Positions 41,415-45,574 of a DNA stretch of 64,000 bases are shown here, piece by piece. The notes under the pieces are model-generated. The model made no database searches. It was not told the origin of the DNA and saw nothing but the letters and a program-made list of their open reading frames with translations. The translations under genes and the position numbers were made by a program. The DNA is from Candidatus Heimdallarchaeota archaeon (GTDB lineage: Archaea > Asgardarchaeota > Heimdallarchaeia > JABLTI01), in assembly GCA_018238155.1 (NCBI GenBank), contig JABCTZ010000037.1:69256-133255 (forward strand). Direction: 5' to 3'. Position 1 is the stretch's first letter. Each line of letters begins with the position of its first letter.

Positions 41415-41604
41415 GTATTTGTGTTTCTTAGTTAAAATCGTTTTTATTGTTAATCTTAGTCAAATATAAAGCGATAATTTTCAATTCTCTTCACAGCAAT
41501 AATCTAAAATGTCCCAAAGCCTAAAATAGTTTAAATAGATATATATCGAAACAATTAACGTATTGTTAGTTAAAGAATTAGTAACTAGTACCAGGTGGAA
41601 CTAT

Positions 41605-43488
41605 ATGCTACCGATTTTGAAAACCTTGGAATTCTCTAAAATTATTCCCTTAAGTGAAAGATCTGTTGAAAAAATTATTTTTAAAGATGGAATCAACAAA
41701 TTCCTAGCTGAAAACGGGTCGGGTAAAACTACTCTAACGGATTTAATTGAACACTCTCTTGTAAGAGATGCTCATGCTTTTGCTTGGAATGTTTTTTCGA
41801 AAAAAAGAGTGGATCGTACTGCTTATGTTAAATCTGAATGGGTTTTTGGTTCAGAAAAGAATTCTATCACCCATGAGTTAACTGATGCGGGTGCTAGGAC
41901 ACGTGTAACTTCCTCCAAATTTTCAAATAAAGCACATACAAAAGATATGTATTCAGATTTCATTTATTCAAAAACAAACTTATCTTTGGAACAAATACAG
42001 AAACTATTCGAAGGGGTCTATTATAAACGAGAGAATGATTTGAATCTTTTAGGAACCCCTGGTAAAGAGAGTTTGATGGATTTCTTTGAGCTTTTGAATA
42101 AAGCAATTAGAATGGATACTCCAACAACAATTAAGCTTCGCAATCAAATTGGTGAAATTAAACGTCAAATCGATTTAAGGAAAAATAACAAACGCAAAAT
42201 TGAAGCTACTCTTGAAAAGATGGAAATAATTTTTGCTGGAACTGATTCTTCAGCTGATGCTTTAGATAATATTGGCTCCAGAAAAGGTGATTTAGAACGT
42301 AGCAATAATCAATTAAAAAAAGAAGGTGATAATTCACGTTTAGCATTTTCAAATATTGAAGAAGAGGATAAAGAAATTCTTAACAAGTTAGACAGTGATC
42401 AAGAAGTATTACTTAAAATTAGAACTCAGCTTGATTCCTTGAAATCCAATAGGTTTGCTTTTCAAGCAGATCTAAATAATCTCAAAAACGAACTTGATGG
42501 TTTCAAAAAGTTAGGCAATGTTGATTATTCTTCCATCAAAGAAGCTTGGGAAAAGAAAGAAAATTGTGAACTTTGCGGAAGCTCAATTTTCAACCATTGG
42601 GAAGAACGAGTCAAGGAAGGTTGTCCTTCTTGTGGAACACTTTGGAAAAATATCCCTAAAACCATTCAAGAATTAATTTCTAATGGGCGAAAAAATAACG
42701 GTAAAGAAACACGTGATATTCAAACAGAAATTGAGAAAATTGAACTGGAACTCAGAACAACTCAAGAAGATATTGAGAGATTGGAGAAAGATGAGAAAAC
42801 AAATAATGTATCAGTGAAGAATTTAAGGGAGAAATTGGCTACTAATAATTCTAGAAGAAGAAAACTTCAATCGCAAAATGATGTAATTACTCAGAAAATA
42901 CATAGAATTGGTGTTGAACTTGGTAGTTTATCTGCTCAAGAAAAAATGGTTAATCAAGATGAAAGCATCGGTTTGCTGAAAGTAAATCTTGAAAAAATCA
43001 ATACAGAATTAGAGAATTATTATACTCAATTGGATCGATATGAACATGAACTTCCTGAACAAGAAGAATTACAACAAATTCTCAACAATTTTACTCGTTC
43101 CACGAAAGAAATTTTTGGTTATAGTATGTTAGCTGATACAGATACGAGAATTATAACAATATCGAAAGATGATTCTGAAAGAGATTTCGAGGCTATGTCA
43201 TGGTCTGAAAGGTATTTCATCGATGTTGTCTTTAGAATATCTGTTTTCAATTTCCTAATAGAAAACGGTATAATGAAGAAAGGGTTCCTTGTTCTTGATT
43301 CTCCGGAAGCTGCTCTTGATCCACATAGATTAGATTTACTCGCGAATTTGATCAATAAACACAAAAATAAAATCACTTTCACAATTGCAACACGAGTAAG
43401 CAAATTCTTTAACCAATTAGAAGGAAATCCATTGGAAATCCGAAAACAAACTCAAACAAGTTTATTCGATTTCATTAGTATGAGTTAA
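41605..43488 (+). CDS. SMC/Rad50-superfamily ABC ATPase with central Cys motifs and C-terminal PIP box
   Basis: Walker A AENGSGKTT, coiled coils, CELC...CPSC, signature MSWSE, Walker B/D-loop LVLDSPEAALD, terminal QTSLFDFI. Confidence 0.85.
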   Translation: MLPILKTLEFSKIIPLSERSVEKIIFKDGINKFLAENGSGKTTLTDLIEHSLVRDAHAFAWNVFSKKRVDRTAYVKSEWVFGSEKNSITHELTDAGARTRVTSSKFSNKAHTKDMYSDFIYSKTNLSLEQIQKLFEGVYYKRENDLNLLGTPGKESLMDFFELLNKAIRMDTPTTIKLRNQIGEIKRQIDLRKNNKRKIEATLEKMEIIFAGTDSSADALDNIGSRKGDLERSNNQLKKEGDNSRLAFSNIEEEDKEILNKLDSDQEVLLKIRTQLDSLKSNRFAFQADLNNLKNELDGFKKLGNVDYSSIKEAWEKKENCELCGSSIFNHWEERVKEGCPSCGTLWKNIPKTIQELISNGRKNNGKETRDIQTEIEKIELELRTTQEDIERLEKDEKTNNVSVKNLREKLATNNSRRRKLQSQNDVITQKIHRIGVELGSLSAQEKMVNQDESIGLLKVNLEKINTELENYYTQLDRYEHELPEQEELQQILNNFTRSTKEIFGYSMLADTDTRIITISKDDSERDFEAMSWSERYFIDVVFRISVFNFLIENGIMKKGFLVLDSPEAALDPHRLDLLANLINKHKNKITFTIATRVSKFFNQLEGNPLEIRKQTQTSLFDFISMS

Positions 43489-44895: not shown

Positions 44896-44986
44896 AATAT
44901 CGTTATCATCCCAATACTTTAAAAATAAAAGTTATGCAAACTAGTTTAGAAGGATTTTTTTGTACAGAGAAGCGAAGTGTAAAGCT

Positions 44987-45574
44987 ATGAGTGATGACGA
45001 AGAAATAAAGATAAAAAATCTCTTGAGAGGAATCAAATCAATCTTAAAGAGAAGAAAATACAAAATTGCCTCCGAAGAACGTTTTGAAAATTATATTGAT
45101 ATTCAATGTGAATTAGATTCAGATAGTACTCAAGAAATTCTTACTAGAATTTCCTTAGAGGATAAAGTTGGAGTAGCAGTTTTGCGCGAATATGTTAAAA
45201 AATTAGAAGAGGTTGAGCTAGAGAAAGGAGAAGAAAATATTAAAGGATTGTTAGTCGCTTCCAATCGATTCACTCATTATGCTCGGCGCGAAGCAAAGGA
45301 AAAGAAGATTTGGATAATTACTAGCAAAGATCCGAGATTCGACATCTTTACTCATGAACTCGTACCAGAGCATGTAATTTGTCCAGATGAAGAATTAAAA
45401 GATCTATTACTCAAATATAATATTCAAAGAAGGCAATTACCTAAAATTCTCATTAGCGATCCAGCAGTCAAAGCTATTGGTGCTAAACCAGGGCAAGTTG
45501 TTAAAATTTACCGAGAAAGTGCCATTGCCAGCGAATCTATCGCTTATCGGCTTGTTGTAAGTAGAGCAAATTAG
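44987..45574 (+). CDS. rpoH: RNA polymerase subunit Rpo5/RpoH with RPB5-like N-terminal domain
   Basis: C-terminal HELVPEH...QLPKILISDP...GQVVKIYRES...YRLV, plus about 115 extra N-terminal residues. Confidence 0.92.
   Translation: MSDDEEIKIKNLLRGIKSILKRRKYKIASEERFENYIDIQCELDSDSTQEILTRISLEDKVGVAVLREYVKKLEEVELEKGEENIKGLLVASNRFTHYARREAKEKKIWIITSKDPRFDIFTHELVPEHVICPDEELKDLLLKYNIQRRQLPKILISDPAVKAIGAKPGQVVKIYRESAIASESIAYRLVVSRAN

Follow-up and report, generated by a model that had tools for sequence, protein, structure and literature searches.

Proteins of the SMC (structural maintenance of chromosomes) family and sliding clamps are two universal ring machines of chromosome biology. In eukaryotes the coupling between them is indirect, for example through the acetylation of cohesin by an enzyme that carries a PCNA-interacting protein (PIP) box. 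MutS/MSH6 with its clamp motifs, Eco1/ESCO2 with its PIP box and CrfC of Escherichia coli are clamp-tethered factors that follow a similar logic, in which a short clamp-binding peptide brings a cohesion factor or a DNA-binding ATPase to newly replicated DNA. In the Thermococcales, an SMC-type machine is coupled to the clamp through Mre11. PCNA of Pyrococcus furiosus recruits and stimulates Mre11-Rad50 via a C-terminal PIP-like peptide on Mre11; this motif has no Gln and is functional, and there is no direct contact between PCNA and Rad50 (PMC6009593). Here, we describe a gene from Candidatus Heimdallarchaeota archaeon, located in a stretch of 64,000 nucleotides (contig JABCTZ010000037.1; the whole stretch is referred to as the window), which encodes a short-armed Rad50-like ATPase of 627 amino acids that ends in a PIP box of its own. 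We refer to the product as the PIP-tailed ATPase.

Short relatives of SMC proteins have been described in Lamassu defence systems and among the ASRPs. According to passages of PMC12663957, the short form of the Lamassu ATPase LmuB is about 600 amino acids long, with coils of roughly 20 nm, a Walker B of the form hhhhD[Q/S/T/E] and zero to two CxxC motifs; the same passages report that some Lamassu systems have lost components. LmuB is described as a slow ATPase in passages of bioRxiv 10.1101/2025.03.14.643221, and the passages of neither source mention a clamp-binding tail on LmuB. Like the PIP-tailed ATPase, the ASRPs (ClsN/coalescin and Sph1/2) are short SMC-related proteins of archaea; both carry a CxxC apex and occur alongside SMC and Rad50. 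Several ASRPs have been reported for Heimdallarchaeota (PMC9389158). PCNA is not mentioned anywhere in that paper. The original prediction, made from the sequence alone, held that no characterized SMC-family ATPase is known to have such a tail, and in the literature that we searched in full text none with its own PIP box is described, nor is anything that links Lamassu to the sliding clamp. The nearest precedent is the action of PCNA on P. furiosus Mre11-Rad50 through the Mre11 peptide (PMC6009593). Both systems would link a Rad50-type machine to PCNA through a C-terminal peptide. However, the P. furiosus motif is on Mre11, whereas in the present family a canonical motif is on the ATPase itself and there is no nuclease partner. 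With MutS the PIP-tailed ATPase shares only the ABC fold and with Eco1 and CrfC no homology, and it has neither the mismatch-binding domain of MutS nor the acetyltransferase domain of Eco1.

The archaeal PIP consensus is Q-x-x-[LIM]-x-x-[FY]-[FYLI] (PMC4929162, PMC6009593). The predicted PIP box, QTSLFDFI, was found at the extreme terminus of the protein, where it follows a flexible linker, fits this consensus and is conserved in the orthologues. Its core was invariant across 31 homologues, down to 33% identity, and a PIP-type motif was present 21 to 24 residues past the H-loop Thr in all 35 members of a wider alignment that includes distant relatives. The original prediction, which would have failed had the motif not been conserved, stands on this point. 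In these 35 sequences, which extend down to 20% identity, position 4 was always L or I, position 7 always aromatic and position 8 always hydrophobic; Leu620 and Phe623 themselves were kept in at least 90%, and position 1 was Q in 29. Members that are only about 20% identical end in QKNLFDFL, QLSLDSFF and QRSIMDFI. A distant homologue outside the alignment (L078) carries QYSLEAFF, followed by four residues.

To place this motif in context, we surveyed the organism's own genome, which holds one PCNA gene. The terminal PIP pattern occurred in 19 open reading frames (ORFs) of at least 200 amino acids, compared to 3.6 expected from internal windows, which is an enrichment of about 5-fold at C-termini. 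The carriers include PolD DP2, RFC-L, Fen1, RNase HII, NreA, a Y-family polymerase and Mre11. Because the pattern is enriched at C-termini and its carriers are dominated by known clients, the terminal motif predicts PCNA clients well in this archaeon. At the level of sequence, these data strongly suggest that the tails of the ATPase dock on PCNA.

Alternatively, the terminal motif could bind another partner, or serve as a regulatory latch by packing on the head or coiled coil of the same protein. Gln is absent from position 1 in six of the 35 members. One subfamily, to which a homologue from a contig labelled Candidatus Hodarchaeota belongs, has an internal motif without the Q and with about 25 to 45 residues beyond it. 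Moreover, some non-client enzymes, such as SAICAR synthase, match the pattern in the same genome. However, the motif follows a short, mostly unstructured linker with basic residues just before it, the other terminal matches are mainly known clients, and the P. furiosus Mre11 peptide shows that PIP-like motifs without Gln can work (PMC6009593). We therefore regard a tail dedicated to something other than PCNA as quite improbable.

The same survey yielded observations on other proteins. Mre11 (locus L044, G000:C6:58934-60220, minus strand) is encoded directly upstream of the 959-amino-acid Rad50 and has the tail Q-x-x-L-x-x-F-I six residues from its C-terminus. This is a canonical PIP box, whereas Thermococcales Mre11 has only the PIP-like motif without Gln. 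Strong terminal PIP boxes were also seen in four proteins with no family match or with only a family of unknown function: L031 (344 amino acids), L041 (474 amino acids), L042 (303 amino acids) and L040 (241 amino acids, DUF6884). Their tails include Q-K-S-L-F-D-F-V and a Fen1-type tail that ends in FF, and we consider the four proteins candidate new PCNA partners of this archaeon. The large subunit of PolD (L043, G000:C41:3269-8179, minus strand; 1,636 amino acids) has a canonical terminal PIP box and contains an intein, whose NCBIfam N-terminal region lies at residues 909 to 1006.

We then compared the ABC head with that of Rad50. The family profile matched the Rad50 heads of Methanocaldococcus jannaschii (E value, 9.5e-19) and P. 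furiosus (E value, 1e-12). In the motif table of the 35 members, the Walker A Lys, the signature Ser, the Walker B Asp and the D-loop Asp were largely or fully kept. Conversely, the Walker B Glu, the H-loop His and the Q-loop Gln were missing from all 35, so that the canonical catalytic set of the SMC superfamily is replaced, in the PIP-tailed ATPase by Ser566, Arg597 and Arg142. The signature core is MSWSE (residues 531 to 535), and the Walker B reads LDSPE (residues 564 to 568), with D-S-P-E in place of the D-E-P-T of Rad50; both had been called deviant from the single sequence and proved to be so family-wide. The columns that remain invariant with the distant members included are Pro15, GKTT, Glu143, the four apex Cys, Pro341 and the Walker B Asp. 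These residues suggest that the heads still bind ATP and engage, with hydrolysis that would be slow or proceed through other residues. Glu568 is a candidate alternative catalytic residue in the main clades; it is not conserved in the distant ones.

A model built with AlphaFold2 from the 35-sequence alignment (mean pLDDT, 84) showed a Rad50-like head, in which an antiparallel coiled coil brings together the N-terminal Walker A and the C-terminal signature and Walker B. The arms of about 130 to 140 residues each would span roughly 20 nm at an estimated 0.15 nm per residue. Between them, the two expected CxxC motifs, CELC (residues 321 to 324) and CPSC (residues 340 to 343), form the apex, and their four Cys and Pro341 were invariant in the 31 homologues, down to 33% identity, as well as in all 35 members. 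Paired zinc knuckles typically show the pattern CxxCG...GCPxCG. The apex was modelled with less confidence (pLDDT, 60 to 78) and, folded alone, gave no informative fold match; a self-contained zinc site at this position is thus suggested by the cysteine pattern. At the other end of the protein, a coil that starts at about residue 605 leads to a short terminal helix (residues 620 to 626; pLDDT, about 60). The best fold matches were Thermotoga maritima Rad50 (26.7), P. furiosus Rad50 (25.8; root mean square deviation of 3.0 Å over 287 residues), SbcC (25.3), an Smc head (24.4) and LmuB (23.2; solved chains in PDB 9hqu and 9hqx), and since neighbouring rows of this list are nearly tied, the order among them carries little weight.

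To classify the protein, we scored it against models of the known families, with the other genes of the same genome as controls. Besides the PIP-tailed ATPase, the genome encodes an SMC of about 1,100 to 1,200 amino acids, Rad50, an ASRP-like protein and a 995-amino-acid SMC-like protein. Pfam SMC_N gave 18 bits (cut-off, 40). The best of the NCBIfam Rad50 equivalogs gave 25.8 bits (cut-off, 700), a cut-off that the genome's own Rad50 also fails to reach, with 214 bits. Rad50/SbcC proteins have about 900 amino acids and one half-hook, whereas the PIP-tailed ATPase has 627 amino acids and two CxxC motifs, lacks the three catalytic residues and has its own PIP tail. The Mre11 of this genome adjoins the separate Rad50 gene on contig C6, and the PIP-tailed ATPase has no Mre11 partner. 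Condensin-type SMC proteins differ as well, as the present protein has a Cys4 loop instead of a hinge and its gene has no adjacent scpA or scpB.

The NCBIfam ASRP model (NF045487) matched with 59.2 bits (E value, 3e-16). Together with the comparable length and the CxxC apex, and with the several ASRPs reported for Heimdallarchaeota, this match could indicate an ASRP of the ClsN/Sph type that shapes chromosome compartments like coalescin. However, the score is far from the cut-off of 300 and arises from the coiled coil only, and the genome's Rad50 scores higher with this model (102 bits). The Walker A of the Heimdall ASRPs listed in the supplement of PMC9389158 reads N-A-T-G-K-S-S, unlike that of the PIP-tailed ATPase, and ASRPs have a single CxxC rather than two. 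Moreover, the genome encodes a separate ASRP/ClsN-like protein of 613 amino acids with N-A-T-G-K-S-S, one CxxC and no PIP tail (L045, G000:C43:55784-57625, minus strand). The presence of this separate gene indicates that the PIP-tailed family is a further paralogue in the SMC superfamily, and we consider an ASRP function highly improbable. A 587-amino-acid gene lies 19 bp downstream of L045 on the same strand.

The PADLOC model for LmuB (PDLC03859) matched the PIP-tailed ATPase over nearly its full length with 67.5 bits. The same model gave 83.5 bits for the genome's true Rad50, 58 bits for the 995-amino-acid protein and 110 bits, the highest score in the genome, for L045. Since Rad50 and the ASRP-like gene outscore the PIP-tailed ATPase, the match does not discriminate, and we rejected it as evidence of membership. 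The original prediction had likened the Walker B to that of Lamassu-type ATPases. This comparison stood in part: the D-S Walker B and the double CxxC match the short LmuB of the PMC12663957 passages, but the profile match is not specific, and archaeal Rad50 scores as high as LmuB or higher, by small differences that are largely within the error of the tools. The next matches of a profile built from the distant members are archaeal Rad50/SbcC, and the nearest clusters in the ESM Atlas are short bacterial and archaeal AAA_23/SbcC-like ATPases, with no eukaryotic lead among these neighbours. We file the proteins as a new family in the CxxC (Rad50/SbcC/LmuB) branch of the SMC superfamily, distinct from Rad50, LmuB and ASRP.

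The family is rare. A word-indexed search of 5.8 billion proteins returned 35 relatives, of which 30 were full-length at 58 to 90% identity and one was at 33%; those with a named source came mostly from Heimdallarchaeota or Asgard metagenome-assembled genomes. When 1.84 billion cluster representatives were searched exhaustively with HMMER, only 26 clusters matched, the longest of 653 amino acids, and no fused form was among them. The distant clusters (20 to 28% identity, 599 to 653 amino acids) with a source name belong to Hodarchaeales, Lokiarchaeota/Promethearchaeota and Heimdallarchaeota, and all named members of the family are Asgard archaea, chiefly Heimdallarchaeia. The mean column identity of the 31-sequence alignment was 76%. 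Among 301 genomes of the phylum, strong matches were found in 9 of 10 genomes of the window's own taxonomic family (f1), 3 of 3 in family f6, 6 of 29 in family f2 (0 of 23 in one genus) and 1 of 21 in family f4, with one match per positive genome. The gene tree tracks the taxonomic families: in a maximum-likelihood tree of 18 members, which omits L065, L066 and L078 because they were missed by the motif filter, f1 and f6 were fully supported and f2 had a support of 91/99. Viral contigs yielded no relative. This pattern is what vertical descent with lineage losses would give, and does not fit a mobile defence gene. The distant-member profile matched none of 87 genomes of another Asgard class, a search that had no positive control and shows little, and metagenome scans with the Hod-type alignment and one distant member found nothing. 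Among sequencing runs, no RNA run was listed for the gene, and the single DNA run listed contained few of its sequence words.

Synteny over about 20 kb is conserved within f1 and comprises a DNA ligase, a YggU-like gene, two membrane proteins on the opposite strand, a class-III aminotransferase and an Rpb5-like gene; we attribute it to relatedness and not to an operon. The ATPase gene of f2, the family of Ca. Heimdallarchaeum, directly follows gyrB-gyrA on the same strand, at about 40 to 70 bp, at five of six loci; the short contig of the sixth shows just the end of gyrA upstream. What lies downstream varies in f2, and the neighbours in f6 are different again. As had been noted for the window, our scan of the neighbours found no mre11, scpA/B or effector gene adjacent, and no Mre11 or kleisin partner is conserved beside the gene. 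PADLOC gave no matches among the window neighbours. The earlier description of an orphan short-armed ATPase of the SMC superfamily was borne out by the split head, the arms of about 130 residues and this lack of a conserved partner gene.

These data bear on the possibility that the protein is an orphan or remotely encoded Lamassu-type sensor, in which an LmuB-like dimer on PCNA detects foreign replication or DNA ends and signals to an effector elsewhere. The shared short-LmuB anatomy, the loss of components in some Lamassu systems and the slow ATPase of LmuB, all as given in the passages cited above, are consistent with this idea, as are the LmuB chains among the best fold matches, the weak LmuC match beside the Hodarchaeota-labelled homologue and the patchy spread across Asgard archaea. 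However, LmuA, the effector of a Lamassu operon, and LmuC, which usually accompanies it, were found neither in the window nor at the f1, f2 and f6 loci, and the best LmuC match in the organism's own genome had an E value of 0.05, with a model that also matches in 4 of 14 control genomes at E values of 0.1 or better. The non-specific PADLOC score adds no support, and the gene differs from lmuB in its non-defence context: it is single-copy, syntenic and vertically inherited, and lies among housekeeping genes. We judge a Lamassu-type sensor unlikely, although it is the least improbable of the alternatives considered.

Other features of these loci were recorded. The Ca. Heimdallarchaeum clade of f2 conserves a block of an amino-acid kinase, gyrB, gyrA and the PIP-tailed ATPase. 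At L024/L025 (4143-7952, plus strand) in Ca. Heimdallarchaeum, GyrA has 1,269 amino acids, compared to 835 to 854 in related genomes, and an intein is suspected. The contig labelled Candidatus Hodarchaeota (L030, 3565-5161, plus strand) carries a distant member with an overlapping 150-amino-acid ORF, followed by a 375-amino-acid ORF without a family; this may be a three-gene Lamassu-like unit. In the window, the Rpb5-type RNA polymerase subunit (44960-45574, plus strand) has an N-terminal domain that weakly matches inactive Mrr-like restriction-endonuclease folds.

Together, these results lead us to favour, with confidence slightly better than even, a PCNA-tethered, slowly hydrolysing, stand-alone Rad50-like DNA clamp that serves replication-coupled genome maintenance. 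According to our model, the protein would form a homodimeric Rad50-like clamp, with zinc held by the Cys4 apex. The heads would engage on ATP, hold DNA as a long-lived clamp and release it slowly; these kinetics are suggested by the missing catalytic residues, which are observed. The PIP tail would dock the clamp on the single homotrimeric PCNA and so direct it to newly replicated or repaired DNA, where it may tether, protect or sense DNA behind PCNA. The housekeeping context, the vertical inheritance and the absence of an effector beside the gene argue for a genome-maintenance factor, not a defence module. The role in fork cohesion or repair that had been proposed should be read as an inference. 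In a more specific version, PCNA of Heimdallarchaeia would install an SMC-type protein directly behind the fork, where it would hold or mark sister DNA as a counterpart, in prokaryotes, of replication-coupled cohesion or of fork protection. This version, which would pair a Rad50-like scaffold with a latch-like ATPase of very slow hydrolysis, is speculative, and we consider it somewhat less probable than a Lamassu-type sensor.

Several observations weigh against the favoured PCNA-tethered clamp. Its size, D-S Walker B and double CxxC also fit the short LmuB, an immune sensor (in the PMC12663957 passages). The 150-amino-acid ORF that follows the Hodarchaeota-labelled homologue is a weak LmuC match (E value, 2e-4). 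The patchy distribution, even within Heimdallarchaeia, is unusual for a core replication factor. Finally, the gyrase linkage is confined to one family and gyrA was not found in the window's genome (91% complete), and for these reasons we rejected gyrase as a general functional link.

If the model is correct, an ATPase wired directly to PCNA would provide a simple, testable model of clamp-coupled loading of an SMC-like protein. The family suggests that an SMC-type DNA clamp is connected with replicating DNA in a way that has not been described, with PCNA binding predicted from the tail, and it is found in Heimdallarchaeia, which are among the closest known archaeal relatives of eukaryotes. The loss of three catalytic residues throughout a family that keeps its ATP-binding residues offers a naturally occurring example of an SMC head latched by ATP. 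If the protein is instead a relative of Lamassu, it would give a first indication that sensors of this kind monitor replication via the sliding clamp.

The coordinates of the gene and its features are given in Table 1. The frame is uninterrupted, with the stop codon included in the coordinates, and every motif named in the original prediction is present at its stated place, in line with the predicted gene of about 627 amino acids. The longest version of the ORF opens at TTG 41563. We place the start at ATG 41605, as predicted, because its N-terminal MLP is the start in all full-length homologues of the alignment, a Shine-Dalgarno-like sequence lies upstream and a TATA-like stretch is found about 60 nucleotides 5' of the ATG.

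Table 1. Features of the PIP-tailed ATPase gene, in window coordinates
Feature	Coordinates	Strand	Basis
Shine-Dalgarno-like AGGTGG, 6 nt 5' of the ATG	41593..41598	+	Direct sequence reading
Coding sequence of the SMC/Rad50-like ATPase	41605..43488	+	Translation; 35 homologues
Walker A/P-loop, residues 35-43; GKTT invariant	41707..41733	+	Alignments, motif table
Q-loop position, residues 140-145; Arg142 for Rad50 Gln, Glu143 invariant	42022..42039	+	Alignment to M. jannaschii Rad50, motif table
Ascending coiled-coil arm, residues 173-304, break at 210-216	42121..42516	+	AlphaFold2
Apex, two CxxC 15 residues apart (C321, C324, C340, C343), putative Zn(Cys)4	42565..42639	+	Sequence
Descending coiled-coil arm, residues 365-504, breaks near 450-455 and 481-484	42697..43116	+	AlphaFold2
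Signature, residues 530-536; S-W-S-E-R vs Rad50 S-G-G-E-Q	43192..43212	+	Alignment, motif table
Walker B and D-loop, residues 561-572; Asp565 invariant, Ser566 for catalytic Glu, Asp572 the D-loop Asp	43285..43320	+	Alignment, motif table
H-loop position, residues 592-598; T-R (Arg597) vs Rad50 T-H	43378..43398	+	Alignment, motif table
Head-to-PIP linker, residues 605-616, mostly coil, basic just before the motif	43417..43452	+	AlphaFold2 (pLDDT ~60), alignment
C-terminal PIP box QTSLFDFI, residues 617-624, then three residues and stop	43453..43476	+	Sequence, family alignment

Some weak matches of the family profile were assigned to other families. The 789-amino-acid protein L082 and the Loki-type ATPases L079 to L081 (425 to 431 amino acids) all have canonical D-E and T-H motifs and lack a PIP box; L082 has one CxxC, the Loki-type ATPases none. 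The latter proteins, from a second class of the phylum, are always encoded beside a gene of about 360 amino acids, with which they likely form a separate two-gene system.

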